Positions 8,819 through 30,820 of a stretch of 64,000 nucleotides of DNA are shown here, one piece after another (within the stretch, counting starts at the first letter, position 1; each line of letters starts with the position of its first letter). The notes beneath the pieces are model-generated. The model was given only the letters and a program-made list of their open reading frames with translations. It had not been told where the DNA came from and ran no database searches. The stretch is from a virus (lineage: Duplodnaviria > Caudoviricetes), in IMG/VR virus record IMGVR_UViG_3300033070_001497, positions 32,001-96,000 of that record, one strand, 5' to 3'. The position numbers and the translations under genes were made by a program.

Positions 8819-9844
8819 ATGCACACGCACGTCTTCGACATCGATGACACCCTGGTTCTCACCGACGGTAAGATAAAGGTCGTCAACCCATTGAATGGGG
8901 TCAGGCTACTTTCGGCCAAGGAATTCACCAAGTACCAACAGCACCCTCACGATTCGTTCGACTTCTCCGAGTTCAACGACGTGGATAAGCTGATGAACGG
9001 CACGCTAGTGAAGGACGTGTGCATGATCATCAGGGATTGCCATGACGCTGGGGAACGGATAGCCGTGATCACCGCAAGGGAGCAGGTGTGGCAGATCGTG
9101 CACTTCCTGAAGGAACGTATTGGAGTGACTATTCCACCGGAGATGGTCCTTGCGGTCAACGAGAAGCCGCGGAGGTTCTTCGGCGACAACGTCCCAGAGA
9201 TGAAGAGGCAGGCCATCAAGCGCCTGATCGAGTCTGGATCATCCAAGATCGACTTCTACGACGATGATCCGATGAACCTAGAGCTGGCTGCGATCGAGTC
9301 TGCCAAGCACGGAATCCCATTCCGAGCCATCCATGTCGATGACAAGTGGCATCGAACTAGCCTTCCGAAGAGGAGGATCGATGAGAAGATCGATGGGTTC
9401 TCTGGCATCCTGAAGCTGATCACTGGGATGTCGAACGCATCCACTTCCAAGGTCGGCTGTCTTGCCCTGAACAAGGACTTTCGGAACATCGCCGCATTCG
9501 GTTGGAACGGTTCGTATTCAGGAGCGCCGACGAACCCAGAGACCGGGGCAGAGGAGGAGTCCCTCGAACCAGGCATGAGCGGATTCATCCACGCCGAGGT
9601 CAACATGATCGCCAAGTTCAGGGAGCCGGATCCACAGAACTACATCGTCCTGTGCAGCCTGTCCCCTTGTGCGATGTGCACGAAGATCCTGGTCAATTCA
9701 GGGTTCAAGATGGTGTACTGGATAGACACCTATAGGGAGACCAATCACCTCCGGATCTTCCAGGAATGTGGAGTCATGTGCGGAAACATCGATGACCTCA
9801 AGAACCGAATCAACGAGATCCAGGGCAAACCCGGTCATAGATAA
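8819..9844 (+). CDS. fusion of HAD-superfamily phosphatase and dCMP deaminase
   Basis: N-terminal HVFDIDDTL, ITAR, K and FYDDD (HAD motifs I-IV); C-terminal KVGC, GWNG, HAEVN and SPCAMC (zinc deaminase). Confidence 0.85.
   Translation: MHTHVFDIDDTLVLTDGKIKVVNPLNGVRLLSAKEFTKYQQHPHDSFDFSEFNDVDKLMNGTLVKDVCMIIRDCHDAGERIAVITAREQVWQIVHFLKERIGVTIPPEMVLAVNEKPRRFFGDNVPEMKRQAIKRLIESGSSKIDFYDDDPMNLELAAIESAKHGIPFRAIHVDDKWHRTSLPKRRIDEKIDGFSGILKLITGMSNASTSKVGCLALNKDFRNIAAFGWNGSYSGAPTNPETGAEEESLEPGMSGFIHAEVNMIAKFREPDPQNYIVLCSLSPCAMCTKILVNSGFKMVYWIDTYRETNHLRIFQECGVMCGNIDDLKNRINEIQGKPGHR
9837..9843 (+). promoter_or_regulatory. putative late promoter ATAGATA
   Basis: Recurrent motif, 4 nt before ATG 9848. 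Confidence 0.65.
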
Positions 9845-10377: not shown

Positions 10378-13093
<2,716 letters not shown>

Positions 13094-21536: not shown

Positions 21537-24066
21537 CCAAGGATTCATAGACGGAGCCCTAAACAGGTTCGCGAAGACGAACTTGGCCTATGAGAACAAC
21601 CCTCTCATAGCCATCCAGGACCCAACTTACCTTGGGTTCAAGCTCATGTTCCTTTTCGACCAGCCGATGAGCGGGCTTCTGTCGACGGTCGACCACCCTA
21701 ACACCGCGATGGGTTACCTCTCAAGGATTGGGGACGACAACCGTGCGTACTACCTCTCACAGTTCGTGGATACCCTGAGAAGGATCAATGGCCATTGCCC
21801 ATGGTTCTTCCAATCGATCAGTGGATTAGATGAGGCATGGAAGCGTGGGTTCCATGAGGAAGAATTCAAATCTAGGCTGATCGATCGGAAGATCACGATC
21901 GGATGCCTTGAGAGCATCGACCTCAGGATGACTGCCCTGATGGATCTCTACCGGAAGGCCTGTTTCGATTGGAATTACTACCGCCAGGTTGTGCCATGGA
22001 ACCTAAGGACCTTCAGTGTCTATGTCTATGTCTATGAGTCGAGGACGATCAACCGAACAGGCACGCCCACCCGCGAAGTTGAGGGCCCGCCTTCTCCTAA
22101 TCCATCGATGACAGAGAGGATGCTCGGCAAGGAGATCCTTTCCGATTTCGATGATCCATCCCAGATCAACAACACCACGAATCGACTGCTTTTCAGGTTC
22201 GATCAGTGTGAGCTCATCCCAGACGATTCCTCAGGGATGCTCGAAAAGGTCGGCAACGATAAGATGGAGATGGCTTCTCAGAAGTTCAGCTTCTCCTACC
22301 GCCGCGTCTATGAGGAGAACCTGTACAACTTGTTCTCCGATCGGTTGCTATCTGATGAGATGATAGGCAACCTCGATAAGGCTGCGTTGGATGACTCTGA
22401 GATCATAGGCGGTTACGCCCTCAACTCTCCTGACAACCCTACGCCTGGCAAGATAGATCCGAAGACATTCAAGGACAAGCTCAAGGAACAGGTCGATAAG
22501 TTCAAGGAGAAGGCTAAAGCGAAGTTGGATGCTTTGGGCAACGTGTTCGATCAGGACACAGTCCTTAAGACAGTGGAGGATCAGCTTCTTGCAAGGGCCA
22601 AGAACTTGGTCGGTAGCCAAGTCGGTAAAGCTATACTAGGCAATGTGTATGGTTTCTCCCCAGGAGGAATCGTTGCAGCCGCTGGCGCTGGGATCGATGG
22701 GCTTGTACAGCAAGCGATCACCACCGCTGGTGGGCCTGGCGCATCGTTCACGAACACGATCGATAAGCCTAGCGGACAGTACTTCGATGAGGTCACGAAC
22801 AATCAGGTCACCACGCCTAACGGCAATGTGGCTACTGGCCCATCGCTCAATAACGTCCTTGAGATCGCGAACGGTGAATCGAATGGCGGCGCCTCGTTGG
22901 CCAACGTGCTAGAACAGGCCAGCGGTGAGCTGACAGATGGACCATCAGCCGATAACATCGAAGGCTCTGCCACCGGCGAGATCCAGGAAGGAGAATCGCC
23001 TTCAAACGTCAACATGGATCCGCCTCCTGGCTCTCTTACAGGAGAATCAGCCGCAAATACCGAGGGCGAACCCGCTGGAGAGGTCGGTGGCGGCCCGTCG
23101 ACCTCTAACACCGAAGGAATACCTACTGGTACCGTTGGAGGCGGCGAATCACTCTCTAACATCACCGAGGAGGCCTCTGGCAGGATCCAGGACGGTCAAA
23201 GCGTCGGCAATAAGACCACCCTTGCTGGAGGCAAGATCCAGGAAGGACAGTCTGTTGGCAACTCGCTTACTGACGCATCCGGTAAGATCCAGGATGGCCA
23301 ATCGGCCTCGAATGTCGAGCAGGAACCGGCTTCGAGCGGCTACTCTGGCGTATCGGCTGAATCCGGAAAGGCAAGCGGAAGCATCCAACCCGGCCAATCG
23401 GTCGGAAACGTAGAACAGGAGCCTACCCCATCTGACTACTCGGGCGCATCCACAGAGAACAAAGAGAGGGATGCCTCGGGACAAATCCAAGACGGACAAT
23501 CCGTTTCGAACCGCAATGGCATCCCAGATCCAAGCCCAATCCATGGCGAATCGGTCAAAAACACCGTACAACAAGGAGGAGGACAGATCTATGAGGGAAG
23601 CAGCACATCGAATCAGCTCACCGAAGCGAACGGCGAATTGCCTGACGGCCCATCGCGCCTGAATAGGACAGACGAGGATCCTATCGGCAAATCCCAGACT
23701 GGTGCATCTCTGGAGAACAAGATCGGGTTGGCGCATGGAAGCGTCGCCACTGGGCCTTCACTATCCAACCAGGACGTTTTCCATTCGAAGGCCAATCTCA
23801 ACGACGCGGAAGGCATCCCAGGCGGCAACCCAGTCAAGGATCGGTTCGAGCCATCTATGAACAACAAGACTGAGGATCTTCTCAGGTCATCGATCCAGGA
23901 TGGCCCTTCTGGACTCAACCGTCTTTCGGAAAGAGGCTTGACCGACAAAGGCGGAGATCAACCGTCGGAAGCCAATGGCACCGAATCGATCAATGAACGG
24001 ATAGCAGACGGTCCATCGAAAGGAAACTCGTTGGGGCCTCCTCCACATGAGAACGTGAACCGCTGA
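21529..24066 (+). CDS. structural protein with globular N-terminus and long 17-aa tandem-repeat tail
   Basis: Baseplate context; C-terminal half is xxxGxxxxGxSxxNxxx repeats. Confidence 0.7.
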   Translation: MSNQGFIDGALNRFAKTNLAYENNPLIAIQDPTYLGFKLMFLFDQPMSGLLSTVDHPNTAMGYLSRIGDDNRAYYLSQFVDTLRRINGHCPWFFQSISGLDEAWKRGFHEEEFKSRLIDRKITIGCLESIDLRMTALMDLYRKACFDWNYYRQVVPWNLRTFSVYVYVYESRTINRTGTPTREVEGPPSPNPSMTERMLGKEILSDFDDPSQINNTTNRLLFRFDQCELIPDDSSGMLEKVGNDKMEMASQKFSFSYRRVYEENLYNLFSDRLLSDEMIGNLDKAALDDSEIIGGYALNSPDNPTPGKIDPKTFKDKLKEQVDKFKEKAKAKLDALGNVFDQDTVLKTVEDQLLARAKNLVGSQVGKAILGNVYGFSPGGIVAAAGAGIDGLVQQAITTAGGPGASFTNTIDKPSGQYFDEVTNNQVTTPNGNVATGPSLNNVLEIANGESNGGASLANVLEQASGELTDGPSADNIEGSATGEIQEGESPSNVNMDPPPGSLTGESAANTEGEPAGEVGGGPSTSNTEGIPTGTVGGGESLSNITEEASGRIQDGQSVGNKTTLAGGKIQEGQSVGNSLTDASGKIQDGQSASNVEQEPASSGYSGVSAESGKASGSIQPGQSVGNVEQEPTPSDYSGASTENKERDASGQIQDGQSVSNRNGIPDPSPIHGESVKNTVQQGGGQIYEGSSTSNQLTEANGELPDGPSRLNRTDEDPIGKSQTGASLENKIGLAHGSVATGPSLSNQDVFHSKANLNDAEGIPGGNPVKDRFEPSMNNKTEDLLRSSIQDGPSGLNRLSERGLTDKGGDQPSEANGTESINERIADGPSKGNSLGPPPHENVNR
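22813..24035 (+). repeat. degenerate 51-bp (17-aa) coding tandem repeat, about 20 units
   Basis: For example EASGRIQDGQSVGNKTT / LAGGKIQEGQSVGNSLT / DASGKIQDGQSASNVEQ. Confidence 0.85.
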
Positions 24067-24824
24067 TGGAAACCTACCGCGATAACCTACACACGACATC
24101 TTGGCTAGGGGAGGTAGTTGATGTCAACGACCCGCTGAAGATCGGACGAATCAGGGCCAAGGTCTTTGGAAAGTTCGACGAGCTGAACACTGAGGACATC
24201 CCATGGGCCACCCCTGCGACGTCATGGTCAGGTGGCAGCGGCACAGGAGGCGGCTCATTCTCGGTCCCAAAGAAAGGATCGATCGTCGCGATCCAATTCA
24301 ACAATGGTGACCTATACCATCCGGAGTATAGGTTCAACCAGAACCTATCGAAAGAGGTCAAAGATCTGATCAAGGATTCGTACACGAATGCCCATGTCGT
24401 GGTCTATGACACCGTAACCGACGGTGGCATGAAGGTCTACTTCACGGAGAAAGATGGGCTGATGATCGATTACAAGTCGACGAAGCTGAACATCAAGCCG
24501 GACAATTCTATCAGCATAAAGAACCCGAATGGCGATGAGGTCGAGATGAAGAACAACGGCAACATCACGATCAACGTCGAAAAGACCGCGAAGATCAAGT
24601 GCATGGATGCTAAGATTGTAGCACAGAACTCGATCCATTTGGACTGTTCGAAAGCCGCATCCATCAAGCTGGGATCAGTTGCTACCAATTCGATCATCCT
24701 AGGAGAACCTTTCCTTGCTCTGTTCAACGCACACGTCCATGTAGGCAACCTCATGTACCCTACTAGCCCTCCTATAACGCCAGCACCAGCATCTCTTCTC
24801 AGTCTGGTTTCAAAGACCCAATGA
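24066..24824 (+). CDS. baseplate central spike, gp5/VgrG-like (OB fold + beta-helix, no lysozyme)
   Basis: WLGEVVDVNDPLKIGRIRAKVFG...IPWA...SVPKKGSIVAIQF..GD..HP is the Gp5_OB pattern; C-terminal FNAHVH metal-binding tip. Confidence 0.85.
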   Translation: METYRDNLHTTSWLGEVVDVNDPLKIGRIRAKVFGKFDELNTEDIPWATPATSWSGGSGTGGGSFSVPKKGSIVAIQFNNGDLYHPEYRFNQNLSKEVKDLIKDSYTNAHVVVYDTVTDGGMKVYFTEKDGLMIDYKSTKLNIKPDNSISIKNPNGDEVEMKNNGNITINVEKTAKIKCMDAKIVAQNSIHLDCSKAASIKLGSVATNSIILGEPFLALFNAHVHVGNLMYPTSPPITPAPASLLSLVSKTQ

Positions 24825-25288: not shown

Positions 25289-25295
25289 ATAGATA
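25289..25295 (+). promoter_or_regulatory. putative late promoter ATAGATA
   Basis: Recurrent motif in the gap before the S1-like gene, 24 nt upstream of the called ATG. Confidence 0.6.
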
Positions 25296-25319
25296 CTTAC
25301 CACTTCTAAAGGGAACTAC

Positions 25320-26552
25320 ATGAATCGTCCGGCAATCCGGAAATCGACGGCTCCACAACTAGAGAGCCTCCTGGCCAGCTACAAGGTCAAGCTTGAAACT
25401 ACCGAGAATCCAATGTTGCCACCGGCAATAGACTGGGATGCGTTAAGCGCCCAATCTGGGAAGAGGCTGGCCAACAACGTGAGGGTCAAGCGTCACAGAG
25501 GAGATGAGAAGACCCAGATCTTCTGCCATGAGCCTTACGCCCAGGAGCTGTACGAAGCTTACTTCGGTGAGCTCGTTGGCCTAGTGGAACCGAAGGTCAA
25601 CGCAGTAGTCAAGGGAAAGGTCATCTCTTGCAACGCCAAGACCGCATCGATCGACATCGGATGGCGTGAGGAAGCGATGATCGATCTTGGCCGCGAGGAC
25701 AAGTCGTACCTTCCTTACATCGAAACAGGGAACGAGTTCGAGGTCATCGTGGAAAAGGTAGATCCGAACGGAAAGAAGCCGGTGATCGTCTCGCTCACGA
25801 AGATGGTGAAGCGACGCAACGAAGAGGAGCTGATGAATTCCATCGGAAGCCGTGTCGCTTTCCCTGGCAAGGTCGAAAGCATGATCCAGAACGCCGGCTA
25901 CTACGTCGACATCTCTGGGATCAGGTGCTTCATGCCAGGATCGTTGGGTGGCATGAACAAGATCGTCAACTTCGAATCCCTCGTCGGCAAGGAGCTCTAC
26001 GTAGTTCCTATCGTCTATTCGAAGGAGAAGGAGTGCATCGTTGTCTCACACCGCAAATACCTGGAATCGTTGATTCCGGGTGAAGTCGAGAAACTCATCG
26101 TGGGCCAACGCTACGACGGGTTCGTGACTGGCACCAGCGTGCATGGCATCTTCGTCGAGTTCAATGGCTGCCTCACTGGCCTGATCTCAAAGTCAGACAT
26201 GTCAGAAGAGGTCACGGAGCTCTTCAGCAATGGCAGGATCAAACCAGGTGACACCATCAATTTCTTCCTGAAGGAGATATTGGAAGACAATCGATTGGTT
26301 CTCTCGATCAACCCAGTTGAACCGTCTCCTTGGGAGACGATCGAGGACCGGCTGAAGCTCAACACGAAAGTGAGCGGAAAGGTCAAGAAGATCACCAAGT
26401 TCGGTGTGTTCATCGAGCTCGAGCCTAAGATCGTTGGCCTTTTGCACCGGTCTTACCTCGATGAGGCGGATGTGTTCGAGGTCGGCCAGACCGCTGACGC
26501 GGTCGTGGTCAAGATCGATGTTCCAGGCAAGAAAGTATACCTGGCAAGCTGA
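25320..26552 (+). CDS. rpsA: 30S ribosomal protein S1 homologue (4 S1/OB domains)
   Basis: VVKGKV...IDIGWREEAMI; GYYVDISGIRCFMPGS...IVVSHRKYLE; GFVTGTSVHGIFVEFNGCLTGLI; GKVKKITKFGVFIELEPKIVGLLHRS. N-terminal IDWDA resembles Bacteroidota S1. Confidence 0.88.
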   Translation: MNRPAIRKSTAPQLESLLASYKVKLETTENPMLPPAIDWDALSAQSGKRLANNVRVKRHRGDEKTQIFCHEPYAQELYEAYFGELVGLVEPKVNAVVKGKVISCNAKTASIDIGWREEAMIDLGREDKSYLPYIETGNEFEVIVEKVDPNGKKPVIVSLTKMVKRRNEEELMNSIGSRVAFPGKVESMIQNAGYYVDISGIRCFMPGSLGGMNKIVNFESLVGKELYVVPIVYSKEKECIVVSHRKYLESLIPGEVEKLIVGQRYDGFVTGTSVHGIFVEFNGCLTGLISKSDMSEEVTELFSNGRIKPGDTINFFLKEILEDNRLVLSINPVEPSPWETIEDRLKLNTKVSGKVKKITKFGVFIELEPKIVGLLHRSYLDEADVFEVGQTADAVVVKIDVPGKKVYLAS

Positions 26553-26650
26553 TGGTAGTAGCATCATTCATCCTGGGCGCAATCCTAGGAGCGGCTGTGA
26601 TCGGGTATGTCATCATCCGGTTGATCAACGAACAGGGTCCGAATTTCTGA
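26552..26650 (+). CDS. small single-pass membrane protein (32 aa, not in ORF track)
   Basis: TGATG-coupled to the S1 stop; MVVASFILGAILGAAVIGYVIIRLINEQGPNF; fills the gap exactly. Confidence 0.6.
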   Translation: MVVASFILGAILGAAVIGYVIIRLINEQGPNF

Positions 26651-26664: not shown

Positions 26665-27915
26665 GTGAACACCCGGCCATCCCCAATCGATTTTACCGAT
26701 CCAAGGATCGTTTTCAGGTTCTCATGTGAGTTTCTGCATGGCGATCCGCTCGTGGGTCGAATCACGGAAGCCATCGGCCTCCATGTCATCAAGCAGGGCC
26801 AGCCCAACCCATACCAAGCCAGGCTCACCAAGTTAGGCAAGGAGCGGTGGAAACTCAGCACCGGTTTCATGGATTACTCCCACGGGAGGCTTAGCATGAT
26901 CAACACGATGAGGTGGTTGGCCGAGTCATCGAAGACCGATAGCCACTGTGGGATGGTCCTCGATTTCAGCGCGTTCGATGGAAAGAACAACGTCACGTAT
27001 CGCGTCGATCCTATGAAAACAGTGCTAGGGTTCGATGATCGGTTGGCGCTCGAATCGTTCTCGGAGACGAGCCATGCTCCACAATCGATGAGGACTGCGA
27101 TCGATCGCCTCAACATGAGCCAATCGTCGCCGATCTATGGATGCGGAATTTCCCTTGGGTCAGAACATGGAACGGACTTCACAAGGGTCAAGGATGGATA
27201 TGTCAGGGTGAAGTACATCGGCGGCGAATCTTACCCACAGAAGCTTTCTGAGGGGTTGGCCATCGTCGAGAGCATCGCTAAGTGCATATCCGAAGGATAC
27301 CGATCCCCGGGCGTATACAACGAGTCTGAGAGGTCAACGTTCATCAGGATGGTGAGCGAATCGACTTCGATCAAGGGATCCTGTGCGGATTACCAGACTT
27401 TCAGGCAACGGTACCCGGAGATGAGACTCCGAACCAACATGTCAGACAACCCAAGGGAGCTGTCGGCGATGTTCAACCGGTTCAAGCCTTTGCTCATTTC
27501 GCTGTTGGAAGGATGCGAGATCGATGGCAATGAAGCGGAGATAAACTACGACAGCGATCGTGGGATGCTACAGATCAAAGAGGCCAAGCTCACCGTCAAA
27601 TCGATCGAAAGGATAGACCTTCTAGATTGCACGATCAAAGGTGGCAGGCTCCACAAATGCCAACTGTTCGAGTGTGAGTGCAAGTCATCCACGCTGAGCT
27701 GTTGCTACACGAAAGAAACGTCGGTCAAGAACTGCACAGCGGTCGATTGCTACCTGGACCTATTCAGTGAGATCAACGAATCGATCATCGATGGCCGCAT
27801 CACCGAGATCAAATGCTCGGTCGAGAAGTCTGCGATCAGGAACGGCCGGATCGGAAAGAGAGCCAAGATCGATGCGCTCACTGAGATCTACGAAAATGTG
27901 ACCAAGGAACAATGA
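26665..27915 (+). CDS. degenerate amidoligase-like protein with C-terminal beta-solenoid
   Basis: WKLSTGFMDY...TDSHCGMVLDFS and YVRVKYIGGESY recall phage amidoligase E-x-x-T-G-P / C-x-x-H / EFRYxGG motifs, with substitutions; Cys-rich pentapeptide-like tail. Confidence 0.5.
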   Translation: MNTRPSPIDFTDPRIVFRFSCEFLHGDPLVGRITEAIGLHVIKQGQPNPYQARLTKLGKERWKLSTGFMDYSHGRLSMINTMRWLAESSKTDSHCGMVLDFSAFDGKNNVTYRVDPMKTVLGFDDRLALESFSETSHAPQSMRTAIDRLNMSQSSPIYGCGISLGSEHGTDFTRVKDGYVRVKYIGGESYPQKLSEGLAIVESIAKCISEGYRSPGVYNESERSTFIRMVSESTSIKGSCADYQTFRQRYPEMRLRTNMSDNPRELSAMFNRFKPLLISLLEGCEIDGNEAEINYDSDRGMLQIKEAKLTVKSIERIDLLDCTIKGGRLHKCQLFECECKSSTLSCCYTKETSVKNCTAVDCYLDLFSEINESIIDGRITEIKCSVEKSAIRNGRIGKRAKIDALTEIYENVTKEQ

Positions 27916-28670
27916 CACTCACGCCGACAACCCAAGAATTCATCGAGAGGGTCAAGCAGGAGCTGACTGTCGCTTGTGCGGTGCCGTTCGATCTCAAGGC
28001 CAAGGAGATCACTAGGCTGATCGAAGATGCGTATGGGTGGTTCACTTACTCATACGAGGATTCGGTTGAGGATCGGCTCTACGTCATACCAGTCTCGTCT
28101 TTCTCGGTCCCTCTGTTCAAGGCTAAGCGAGTCCTGCCGCTGCCCACCTGTGTGGTGGCTGTGAATGGGGTAAAGAAGCTTCGGGAGGATTTCCTGCCAT
28201 CCTTCTCGTTCGATGGCACCACGGACATCACGGCCGAGAAAGTGATCTTCAAGGATTCTGCCAACCTTGGCTATGGATCGGAATCCCTGATGTACTACGC
28301 GCTCAACCTCTATTGGATCGATCTGGCATCCCACATCCTCAACCACACGGTCTCCTGGACGTTCAACAAGAACACCGGGCTGCTCTTCTTCGGTGGAGAG
28401 ACGCCTAACCGGGACATCGTGGTCCAGTGCCAAACCAAGATCCCGCTGGATGATCTGATGAAGGACCATCTTTTCTACCGCTATGTGGTGGCCAAGGCCA
28501 AGATCCAGCTCTCCAGGATGATAGGAACGTTCGATTTCTCACTCGTCGGCAACGTGAAGATCAACTACGAGCTCGTAAGGGAAGAGGGCAAGGAGGAGCT
28601 ACAGGAGGTCAAGGATCGGATCAAGGGCGACAACGCCATGGACTTCTTCTTTACCAGTGGCGGCGGTTGA
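27912..28670 (+). CDS. neck protein, T4 gp13-like
   Basis: C-terminal YVVAKAKIQLSRMIGTFDFSLVGNVKINYELVREEGKEEL matches the gp13-like pattern. Confidence 0.7.
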   Translation: MTLTPTTQEFIERVKQELTVACAVPFDLKAKEITRLIEDAYGWFTYSYEDSVEDRLYVIPVSSFSVPLFKAKRVLPLPTCVVAVNGVKKLREDFLPSFSFDGTTDITAEKVIFKDSANLGYGSESLMYYALNLYWIDLASHILNHTVSWTFNKNTGLLFFGGETPNRDIVVQCQTKIPLDDLMKDHLFYRYVVAKAKIQLSRMIGTFDFSLVGNVKINYELVREEGKEELQEVKDRIKGDNAMDFFFTSGGG

Positions 28671-28688: not shown

Positions 28689-29057
28689 GTGCCAATCGAT
28701 TTCTATTTCAGGATGCCAGAGGATCCTAACTACTCGAGCTACGAGACGGAGGTGGCCGAGGAGCTGGACCAATTCTTGCAGCAGGTCGAGATGATCCTGA
28801 CCACCCGGAAGGGCCAGGTCCTTGGAGAGCCGAAGTTCGGGGCCAACCTCGAGGATTTCCTGTGGAACTACAGGGCCTCGTCTTACCAGATCGAGAACGA
28901 GGTCAAGTCCCAGATCGAAACTTGGTGCAGCGAGCTCGGACAGAAGTTCAGCTACAAAGTCGAGGCAAGCTTCATCCCAGGTGACATAAGCGACTCGATC
29001 CTCGTCGATATCACCATCGACGGAACAAAAGTCCTAGGGATAGGAGTGAGACCATGA
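28689..29057 (+). CDS. baseplate wedge subunit, gp25-like
   Basis: ILTTRKGQVLGEPKFGANLEDFLW is the GPW/gp25 motif. Confidence 0.85.
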   Translation: MPIDFYFRMPEDPNYSSYETEVAEELDQFLQQVEMILTTRKGQVLGEPKFGANLEDFLWNYRASSYQIENEVKSQIETWCSELGQKFSYKVEASFIPGDISDSILVDITIDGTKVLGIGVRP

Positions 29058-30820
29058 ACATCCTGAACCCGCACAGAATAAAATACTCCGAGGTAGAGTC
29101 GGACGTGCATGGCTACCTTGGCAAGACTTACGCCCAGAAGCGATCGGTTTTCTCCGTCGCTTCCGTGTACGGCCAGATCCTGAAGGTGCTCAAGTCATTC
29201 TGGCAGCTGCTCATGCTCATGTTAGAAGACTCGATCGTCGAGAACAACATCTACACCGCTTCAAAGCAGAGGGCGATCTATGGCCTTTCCAGGCTAGCTG
29301 GCCACAACCCCACCAGGGCTCTGTCGGCCCAAGGCACGATAAGGATGAAGATCAAGGCGAGCGCCCTGGCTGATCTGAACGCCTCTTACATCGATATCGT
29401 CGATCGGACAACTCTCAAGTGCACAGACAACGGCCTCCCTTATTTCATCCAGCTCGGAGAATCCCTGGACTCGATCAGGATCAACATCTCTGACAGGGAA
29501 TTTCACCGAGTGACGATCGTCCAGGGCAAGGTGGAATCACAATCCCTGATCGGCACCGGACAGGCACTGCAATCGTTCAACATCAAGGCCAAGAAACCGA
29601 TAGAGAATGAGCTAGTCTTCGTCAAGGTGAACGGCGTGCCCTATGAGGTGGTCGATTCTCTCTACGACATGAGGAAGGGAGAGAACCTTTGTATAGTCAA
29701 GACCAGCGTCATCGATGGAATTGACCTGACATTTGGAAACGAGGACTATGGAGTCATCCCTCCATTGGGCTCGCTGATCACCGTCGAATACGTGACATCG
29801 GATGGTTTCGAAGGCAACATCTACAGCAAATCCGATAGGATCGAATTCAAGTGGGATGGCGAAGCGATCACCGACACCGGCGAACAGGTTGACCTGAACG
29901 AGGTCCTCGACGTTTTCATCGATAAGCCGATCGTCCTAGGCGCTGACAACGAGCCAATCGAACTCACAAAGCTCATTGCACCGAAGACATCGAGGTCTTA
30001 CGTTCTGGCTAACCCAGACAACTATGTGAATCTCCTCTCCAGGTTCAACTACTCGTATGTCGATGCTTACACGACGTTCGACGACGATTACCTGGACGAT
30101 GACAACGTCGTCTACCTTTTCCTGATCCCTGACCTGTCAAGACGGCTGGAAAAGAACACTGACTACTACACCACGCCATTGACTTCGTTCTATCTCGACA
30201 CAGACGAGAAGGATGCGCTGGTCTCGTGGATCCACCAATCCGGTAGGATGATCGCTTCGACTGAGCTCCAGATCGTAGACCCGATCGTCAAGAAGTATGC
30301 ACTCAACATCTTCCTACGGATCTTCGATTGGGCAGATGCTTCGACGGCGAGGTCAATGGCGATCTCCAAGGTGACTGACTACATGCTCACGGTCAACCGC
30401 CGAGACAAGATCCCGAAGTCAGACCTCATCGCCATCCTCGAGGGAATCAAGGGAATCGATTCGGTGCACGTCAATTTTGTCTCTGAGGAGAACGAAAAGG
30501 CGATCATCGATGGGTGGTACACGAAGCGAAGCTACCAGACTGATCGGATCCGTGGGCTCAAGACGTTGGTGGAGACCAGAGTCAATCTGACAGATGGAGA
30601 TGACCCAAGGCTTGGACTGGATGATTTTGGCGACATCAAGATCGGACTAAACGAGATGCCGCTCTTCCGAGGAGGATGGTACGATCGATTCGGCGCCTAC
30701 TACGACGATGGACTCACCGACCACAACAGCTGTTCCGTCAATGTGGTCATCAAGGAAGTGATACAGGACAGCGTGGCTAAGAGGATCGCGGCGAAGAACA
30801 AGGAAGCGCTCAAGAGATGA
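29054..30820 (+). CDS. baseplate wedge subunit, gp6-like
   Basis: ENNIYTA...LAGHNPTRA, IVQGK, FGNEDYGVIPPLGSLITVEYVTSDG.EGN and GADNE are gp6/baseplate-J-like; follows gp25. Confidence 0.8.
   Translation: MNILNPHRIKYSEVESDVHGYLGKTYAQKRSVFSVASVYGQILKVLKSFWQLLMLMLEDSIVENNIYTASKQRAIYGLSRLAGHNPTRALSAQGTIRMKIKASALADLNASYIDIVDRTTLKCTDNGLPYFIQLGESLDSIRINISDREFHRVTIVQGKVESQSLIGTGQALQSFNIKAKKPIENELVFVKVNGVPYEVVDSLYDMRKGENLCIVKTSVIDGIDLTFGNEDYGVIPPLGSLITVEYVTSDGFEGNIYSKSDRIEFKWDGEAITDTGEQVDLNEVLDVFIDKPIVLGADNEPIELTKLIAPKTSRSYVLANPDNYVNLLSRFNYSYVDAYTTFDDDYLDDDNVVYLFLIPDLSRRLEKNTDYYTTPLTSFYLDTDEKDALVSWIHQSGRMIASTELQIVDPIVKKYALNIFLRIFDWADASTARSMAISKVTDYMLTVNRRDKIPKSDLIAILEGIKGIDSVHVNFVSEENEKAIIDGWYTKRSYQTDRIRGLKTLVETRVNLTDGDDPRLGLDDFGDIKIGLNEMPLFRGGWYDRFGAYYDDGLTDHNSCSVNVVIKEVIQDSVAKRIAAKNKEALKR

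Follow-up and report, generated by a model that had tools for sequence, protein, structure and literature searches.

The S1 gene and its neighbours

The window analysed here (64,000 nt) covers positions 32001-96000 of a 109-kb IMG/VR phage contig, which CheckV estimated to be about 38% complete, a value that puts the whole genome at roughly 290 kb. A 410-aa open reading frame on the plus strand of this window (25320-26552) encodes a homologue of ribosomal protein S1. The original prediction started the gene at 25289 and ended it at 26552; the end was correct, while position 25289 belongs to a non-coding ATAGATA box. In this frame the codon at 25290-25292 is TAG, and the ATG at 25320 is the earliest start codon available.

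The product of this frame is a true descendant of rpsA, with the four OB repeats that had been predicted for it. The S1 domain PF00575 matched in four stretches (Pfam; E 1.4e-25; 89.9 bits, cut-off 22), and residues 78-408 were colinear with positions 3-340 of the 516 positions of TIGR00717, i.e., with domains 1 to 4 of rpsA (NCBIfam; E 4.6e-46). The rpsA models of NCBIfam were matched with E values of about 1e-46 to 1e-48. The corresponding scores (157-165 bits) fell far under the equivalog cut-offs (524-577), and the phage protein is thus a divergent paralogue of rpsA products rather than an equivalog. An AF2 model built from a 34-sequence family alignment (A1; mean pLDDT 82) displayed a helix at residues 74-82 followed by four OB barrels, with residues 1-33 disordered (pLDDT <50). 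The closest Foldseek matches of the model were bS1 proteins on 30S subunits (9gut_B, E 4.9e-25), and a PDB sequence search likewise matched the phage S1 to ribosome-bound bS1. The protein ends directly after domain 4, and domains 5-6 of the Gram-negative type are missing from the Pfam and NCBIfam matches and from the AF2 model. No family was found for the frame in PHROGs, megablast of the S1 region against phage records gave zero matches, and the N-terminal 137 residues searched alone gave no PDB match. The PDB entry 28jw/9tvu, named 'Ribosomal protein S1 homologue' and bearing a long N-terminus, was considered as a possible phage structure and proved to be the Chlamydomonas chlororibosome protein.

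The gene is surrounded by baseplate and neck genes, all on the plus strand, as originally described. Upstream lies a baseplate hub gene (24066-24824) coding for a gpV/gp5-type OB protein (PF04717, E 7.6e-9; phrog_37871, phrog_430). The gene directly downstream (26665-27915), which follows S1 in all cases, codes for a 416-aa protein characterised through its predicted model, Foldseek and its adjacency to S1 in relatives; the model displayed a weakly glutamine-synthetase/amidoligase-like N-terminal part and a C-terminal beta-solenoid, Pfam and PHROG matches were not found for it, and the ESM Atlas gave no usable match. It is followed by a gp13-like neck protein gene (27912-28670; phrog_211), whose orthologues have PF26809 (Phage_T4_gp13), and by the gp25-like and gp6-like baseplate wedge genes (28689-30820; phrog_43 with a weak PF04965, and phrog_219), located at 28689-29057 and 29054-30820, respectively. 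No conserved nuclease or polymerase neighbour of S1 was found. A gene for bS21, the sole other ribosomal protein searched for, was not found in this partial contig, which leaves S1 as the one ribosomal protein gene identified.

The S1 gene shares a promoter-like element of late type with these neighbours. The ATAGATA box ahead of S1 (25289-25295, plus strand) is one of 10 copies in the window, where 2.4 would be expected; this count was attained by none of 100 shuffles, and the same heptamer stands before the 416-aa protein gene and the gp25-like gene. The 24 nt between the box and the ATG of S1 (25296-25319, plus strand), which contain AAAGGGAA, are likely the 5' leader of the S1 message.

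Domain architecture, N-terminal extension and predicted uS2 contacts

The four OB domains differ in how well they retain the features of RNA-binding S1 domains. Domain 1 (residues 96-158; 25605-25793, plus strand) is degenerate for RNA binding, as is domain 1 of bS1, and carries D112 and R116. Domain 2 (residues 181-243; 25860-26048, plus strand) bears the bS1-D2-type motif CFMPGSLGGMNK, which pairs with AFLPGSL of E. coli; residues F204, M205, P206, G207, S208, G211, N213 and K214 are invariant in the family alignment, and the model has low confidence at residues 210-213 of the invariant loop GSLGGMNK. In domain 3 (residues 264-329; 26109-26306, plus strand), H275, F278 and a CLTGL motif are invariant. 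Domain 4 (residues 350-409; 26367-26546, plus strand) gave the best Pfam stretch (347-406) and is of the canonical RNA-binding type, with F/Y361, F364, D400 and K/R404 kept in 34/34 sequences and H376 in 32/34. Taking the canonical RNA-contact positions to be those usually attributed to the S1 domain (Bycroft et al. 1997), all five are kept in domain 4 and part of them in domain 3, where the histidine of the GLxHxS motif is replaced by Ser290. The RNA-binding residues singled out in the original prediction are therefore intact in the last domain and only partly so in the one before it.

In E. coli, domains 1-3 form the minimal active S1 and retain its activities on the 30S subunit (PMC3858243). 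As these three domains suffice there and the RNA-contact residues are kept here, a four-domain S1 would be expected to be active rather than to act as a blocker.

An N-terminal extension had been predicted and is present, although it is shorter than the approximately 90 aa first proposed. Residue 5 of E. coli S1 pairs with phage residue 78, the first OB strand starting at residue 96, so that the truly extra part amounts to about 73-77 aa. The phage-specific segment as delimited from the family alignment and the AF2 model (residues 1-73; 25320-25538, plus strand) is variable over residues 1-33 and conserved from W39 on, with the pattern FDW...N.KIKKHPGD.SKV[FY]CH.PY. W39 and N53 are invariant, and V/I67 and F/Y68 are found in 34/34 sequences.

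The extension is followed by the counterpart of the N-terminal helix that anchors bS1 to uS2 (residues 74-90; 25539-25589, plus strand), identified by phmmer, the family alignment and the AF2 model. In E. coli S1, F5 and F9 stack on F32 of uS2 and are essential for ribosome binding, and D39 and K43 form salt bridges at the zinc pocket of uS2 (PMC4288201). The phmmer alignment pairs these four residues with Y78, F82, D112 and R116 of the phage protein. Conservation in the family is high at these places: Q75, Y78 and R116 occur in 34/34 sequences, D112 in 29/34 and Y81 in 28/34, and an aromatic residue stands at position 81 or 82 in 31/34. The docking helix is internal in the phage S1, behind about 75 extra residues, unlike in any characterised S1.

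A complex was modelled between phage S1 residues 30-180 and uS2 of F. johnsoniae, used as a stand-in for that of the phage host. The structure prediction with uS2 that had been suggested passed its controls, with an ipSAE of 0.73, whereas the best of three controls scored 0.00, a difference to which memory of solved S1-uS2 structures may have contributed. Among 80 solved complexes, 58 attained this mark, compared with two among 110 mismatched pairs. Agreement between runs covered at least 87% of the contacts, and the partner pLDDT was at least 80. Predicted uS2 contacts of the helix region comprise residues 77-78, 80-81, 84-85 and 88-90, while those of domain 1 (residues 110, 112 and 115-118) are directed to uS2 residues 17 and 204-209. 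For extension residues 47-50, 65-69, 71 and 73, the model places the contacts on uS2 residues 32-35. The model indicates a likeness to the known docking of S1, which is distinct from binding itself. Together with the conserved residues, it makes docking of the phage S1 on the ribosome through uS2 plausible.

Compared with bacterial bS1 (E. coli; 6h4n_y, 9gut_B), the phage S1 has the same fold, a colinear arrangement of the N-terminal helix and domains 1-4, equivalents of the uS2-contact residues, an AFLPGS-type motif in domain 2 and a canonical RNA-binding domain 4. It differs by the absence of domains 5-6, by its approximately 75 extra N-terminal residues, by a sequence identity of only about 22-30% and by its placement in a separate clade.

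A phage-only S1 family in a conserved virion gene module

The four-domain S1 belongs to a large family that is monophyletic and confined to phages. More than 120 homologues of about 390 aa were recovered among 5.8 billion proteins searched, at 47-73% identity and with at least 87% of the query covered. Cluster representatives added many more at 30-45% identity, and these were followed by S1 proteins of cellular size at about 30%. Family members measure about 370-430 aa and share the conserved N-terminal extension. In a tree of domains 1-4, the 68 representatives of at most 450 aa fell into one clade (support 1.0), and 47 proteins as long as cellular S1 (483-694 aa) were placed outside it. All contigs long enough to be judged were phage-like.

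The position of the gene is conserved as well. In the gene order shared by all these contigs, the hub is followed by one or two small genes and then by S1, the 416-aa homologue, gp13, gp25 and gp6. Sampling independent of S1, based on the gp6-like wedge protein, retrieved 59 viral loci, among which 42 had enough upstream DNA. S1 was present in 40 of these 42 loci and occupied the same slot in 39. Two loci (L071 and L072) kept the module with an unrelated 473-aa protein in the S1 slot. S1 identity (31-52%) was in step with that of the neighbouring structural proteins, and the gene is thus an old, near-universal part of the module that has been inherited vertically. The cultured relative Flavobacterium phage MaF61, considered as an S1-less comparison, was dropped because it was not syntenic.

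The 462-kb huge phage LR756500.1, one of those published by Al-Shayeb et al. in 2020, carries a family member with 36.5% identity in the same gene slot, and its order of hub, S1, 416-aa homologue and gp13 is that of the phage studied here. The phage studied here and its S1 are GC-rich (54%), in contrast to the relatives (24-33%). Relatives of the wedge protein were found in huge phages, Lak phages of Prevotella, phages of Flavobacterium, Tenacibaculum and Chryseobacterium, and Sphingomonas phage PAU. A Bacteroidota host is plausible from these sequence relationships. The phage clade, which is large and widespread and probably infects Bacteroidota, has kept its own S1, with an added putative docking segment, near-universally and for a very long time. 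No clear cellular donor of the family emerged from a genome contig search that yielded four loci only, and neither PDB nor NCBIfam scores favoured any phylum as the source of the S1.

The family differs in history from the phage-encoded bS1 of Microcystis jumbo phage PhiMa05, which is thought to replace the host protein. The PhiMa05 gene adjoins other ribosomal protein genes, and its product groups with Vampirovibrio S1 (PMC13157829), a cellular affiliation that points to recent capture. The gene described here, in contrast, belongs to an old phage-only clade and stands among virion genes.

Gene starts and candidate roles of the phage S1

The genome showed no SD enrichment upstream of genes, as SD 4-mers preceded 15% of genes against 17% of random positions. 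Internal cistrons without an SD make up the majority, and such cistrons depend on recruitment of the S1 type. In six phages the leader of S1 displayed no significant fold (z -1.5 to +1.5; -0.09 for this phage), so that a structured autoregulatory leader like that of rpsA is not indicated.

The T4 late promoter TATAAATA is a short A/T-rich box near late/virion genes with no -35 element. The phage box resembles it in being short, A/T-rich, located upstream of virion genes and devoid of a -35 element, and its neighbours are T4-like baseplate and neck genes. It differs in its sequence, ATA[GC]ATA, and in often lying only 4 nt from the start codon. By analogy with T4, the box is probably a promoter. 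A ribosome- or S1-binding element appears less likely, considering that the heptamer is strict, is found only at the heads of gene blocks and lies at a distance from the start that varies between 4 and 47 nt in the clade.

The short spacing between box and start codon noted in the original prediction was recovered genome-wide: ATA[GC]ATA lies 4-9 nt from the start codon at 17 genes, and at exactly 4 nt at eight of them. If the box works like TATAAATA, the messages of such genes would be leaderless or nearly so. AT-rich relatives carry ATATATA[AC] ahead of the same genes, at distances that depend on the gene. For S1, the box was found in 28 of 35 distinct upstream regions of the clade, with spacers of 24-47 nt, the longest of the genes compared. 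For the gp25-like gene (box in 37 of 44 regions), spacers were mostly 14-22 nt and reached 4-5 nt in only 3 of 37 cases, and for the 416-aa protein gene (box in 15 of 43 regions) they were mostly 12-22 nt. The 4-nt spacing is thus rare where S1 is clade-wide, and represents a peculiarity of the GC-rich lineage.

S1 recruits messages without a strong SD to bacterial ribosomes, and interference with it by phages is known. The preferred reading, to which a slightly better than even chance is given, is that a phage S1 made late docks on uS2 and supports SD-independent initiation on phage messages. The protein would be produced from its own late-type promoter alongside the virion genes and would dock on the host 30S subunit at uS2 through the N-terminal helix and domain 1, in the manner of cellular S1. 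The conserved strand V/I67-F/Y68-C69 of the extension may enlarge the uS2 interface and aid competition with host S1, while domains 3-4 would bind single-stranded A/U-rich RNA. Phage messages without SD, internal cistrons included, could be recruited in this way when structural proteins are needed in bulk. If host S1 were indeed replaced, the clade would clearly exemplify viral ownership of part of the machinery by which the ribosome selects its messages. Several considerations weigh on the docking reading. The docking helix is internal, unlike in characterised S1 proteins, and the rpsA scores stay far under the equivalog cut-offs. A host that already initiates without SD leaves the need for a second S1 unexplained, which counts against it, and the strict and long retention of the gene in a structural module is odd for a translation accessory gene and would also fit a virion-linked role.

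Host S1 also has partners other than the ribosome, as it is the cofactor of T4 RegB and is held through domains 1-2 in Q-beta replicase. The phage S1 might accordingly be an off-ribosome RNA-binding protein, acting as a chaperone or mRNA protector, as the cofactor of a phage nuclease, or as an enzyme subunit attached through domains 1-2. S1 domains are common in non-ribosomal proteins, the scores of the phage protein lie far below the rpsA equivalog cut-offs, and the invariant GSLGGMNK loop of domain 2 with its low model confidence would fit another partner. For Q-beta replicase, S1 uses the same contact residues as for uS2 (PMC4288201), and a role 'on or off the ribosome' was left open for phage S1 (Al-Shayeb et al. 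2020, PMC7162821). Nevertheless, it is specifically the uS2-docking residues that are conserved, the uS2 model passes its controls, the features of domains 1 and 2 are those of ribosomal S1 rather than of generic S1 domains, and the gene has no conserved nuclease or polymerase next to it. An off-ribosome role is consequently considered unlikely.

The original prediction joined the S1 and the short promoter-to-start spacing into one takeover system, in which the shortened S1 would displace host S1 and, acting selectively or as a dominant negative, disfavour leadered host mRNAs to the benefit of near-leaderless phage late mRNAs. The at least 17 genes starting 4-9 nt behind ATA[GC]ATA, among them the eight with a 4-nt spacer, and the missing domains 5-6 are in line with such a system. 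The predicted enlargement of the uS2 interface by the extension would help displacement, and S1 is dispensable for leaderless mRNAs in E. coli (PMC4288201). The association expected between S1 and short spacing was nevertheless not borne out across the clade, where S1 is present in 40 of 42 loci and the spacers of the gp25-like and 416-aa protein genes are mostly 14-22 and 12-22 nt. The longest spacer everywhere is that of S1, the majority of phage cistrons are internal rather than 5'-proximal, and domains 3-4 keep RNA-binding residues in a protein that exceeds the three domains sufficient in E. coli (PMC3858243). A takeover based on leaderless messages is therefore improbable. Equally doubtful is the possibility that the phage S1 outcompetes host bS1 by means of the extension strand and re-specifies late initiation, which, with start codons at or next to message 5' ends, would amount to a phage-owned regime of late translation in the GC-rich lineage.

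A virion-associated protein, packaged or attached while the tail or neck is assembled and delivered along with the DNA to act on the first phage messages, or recruited to structure or assembly, would account for the fixed slot between hub and neck genes, which is kept in 39 of 42 loci and at identities as low as about 31%, for an evolutionary rate equal to that of the structural neighbours and for the box common to S1 and virion genes. It is nevertheless very improbable, as conserved RNA-binding and uS2-docking residues are needless in a purely structural role, the gene's own promoter box and leader set it apart from any assembly operon as a unit of its own, and L071 and L072 keep the module although the slot is filled by an unrelated protein.

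A link between S1 of phages and messages lacking SD was already published in 2020. Huge phages were reported to encode S1, those with a possible rpS1 rarely having SD sequences, proteins with 'up to six' S1 domains were described, and a role in initiation was proposed (Al-Shayeb et al. 2020, PMC7162821). The four-domain architecture, the conserved N-terminal extension, the baseplate-neck slot and the gene's own promoter box do not form part of that account, and no paper was found on the architecture of the family or on its position in a virion module. As both the family and the idea had been published, the value of this window is modest, and what it adds is negative, namely that the S1 and the near-leaderless gene starts seen in this lineage are not coupled.

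Phage bS21, reportedly treated also by Mizuno et al. in 2019 beside Al-Shayeb et al., offers a parallel in being a phage copy of an initiation-related small-subunit protein with an added N-terminal segment. The extension of phage bS21 was proposed to aid competitive ribosome binding (Al-Shayeb et al. 2020, PMC7162821). It concerns another protein at another ribosome site, and the extension of the phage S1 is predicted to lie on uS2 and not on RNA. Residues Y78, Y81, V/I67-F/Y68 and R116 of the phage S1 provide concrete targets for mutation.

Spacing of boxes and start codons

At eight genes of the whole contig (G000), exactly 4 nt separated the ATA[GC]ATA box, a putative late-type promoter element, from the ATG or GTG, and at nine further genes the distance was 5-9 nt. 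Examples of such close boxes are at 9837, 19463, 26654, 28678, 41439 and 58278 of the window. The relatives (about 32% GC) displayed the box as ATATATA[AC], mostly 14-22 nt from the start, whereas the G000 phage harbored ATA[GC]ATA at 4-9 nt at 17 genes. As judged from this spacing, late leaders seem to have collapsed in the G000 lineage. Shine-Dalgarno 4-mers were not enriched upstream of the 104 genes predicted on the whole contig (15% vs 17% background), and many genes of this contig were joined by ATGA overlaps or separated by gaps of 0-3 nt.

Genes following S1

A 32-codon ORF (26552-26650, + strand), whose ATG overlaps the S1 stop codon (TGATG), encoded a single hydrophobic helix (MVVASFILGAILGAAVIGYVIIRLINEQGPNF). 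Between the end of this ORF and the following ATAGATA box lie 3 nt. The ORF is probably not kept among relatives, since the gene tables of three of them (L004, L006 and L008) left a gap of only ~40 nt between S1 and the next gene.

The gene that was always found after S1 (26665-27915, + strand) encoded a 416-aa protein for which family searches gave no match. The predicted model (pLDDT 74) displayed a beta-solenoid at residues 290-416, while the N-terminal part showed weak likeness to the glutamine-synthetase/PafA amidoligase fold (Foldseek E ~1e-3, TM ~0.25). An active ligase role seems unlikely from the alignment of seven sequences, as no invariant Asp, Glu or His was present in residues 1-290.

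S1 in related loci and genes upstream of the baseplate block

Two related loci, L071 and L072, kept the module of hub, 416-aa homologue, gp13, gp25 and gp6, but the place of S1 was taken by an unrelated protein of 473 aa (4924-6345 in L071). This protein had no match in a Pfam search and was aligned to the S1 family with an hhalign probability of 0.3%. Unless S1 is encoded elsewhere in their genomes, both are natural comparators without S1.

An S1 of 36% identity was encoded on L013 (ONCO01000010.1), a 43-kb contig binned in a rumen MAG labelled Erysipelotrichaceae, where gp25- and gp6-like genes adjoined it on the opposite strand. L013 is probably a phage contig binned together with a bacterium.

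In the window, the genes upstream of the baseplate block include those for an NAD-dependent DNA ligase (889-2775), a fusion of a dCMP deaminase with a polynucleotide-kinase-like part (8819-9844) and a collagen-like tail fibre protein (10391-13093).
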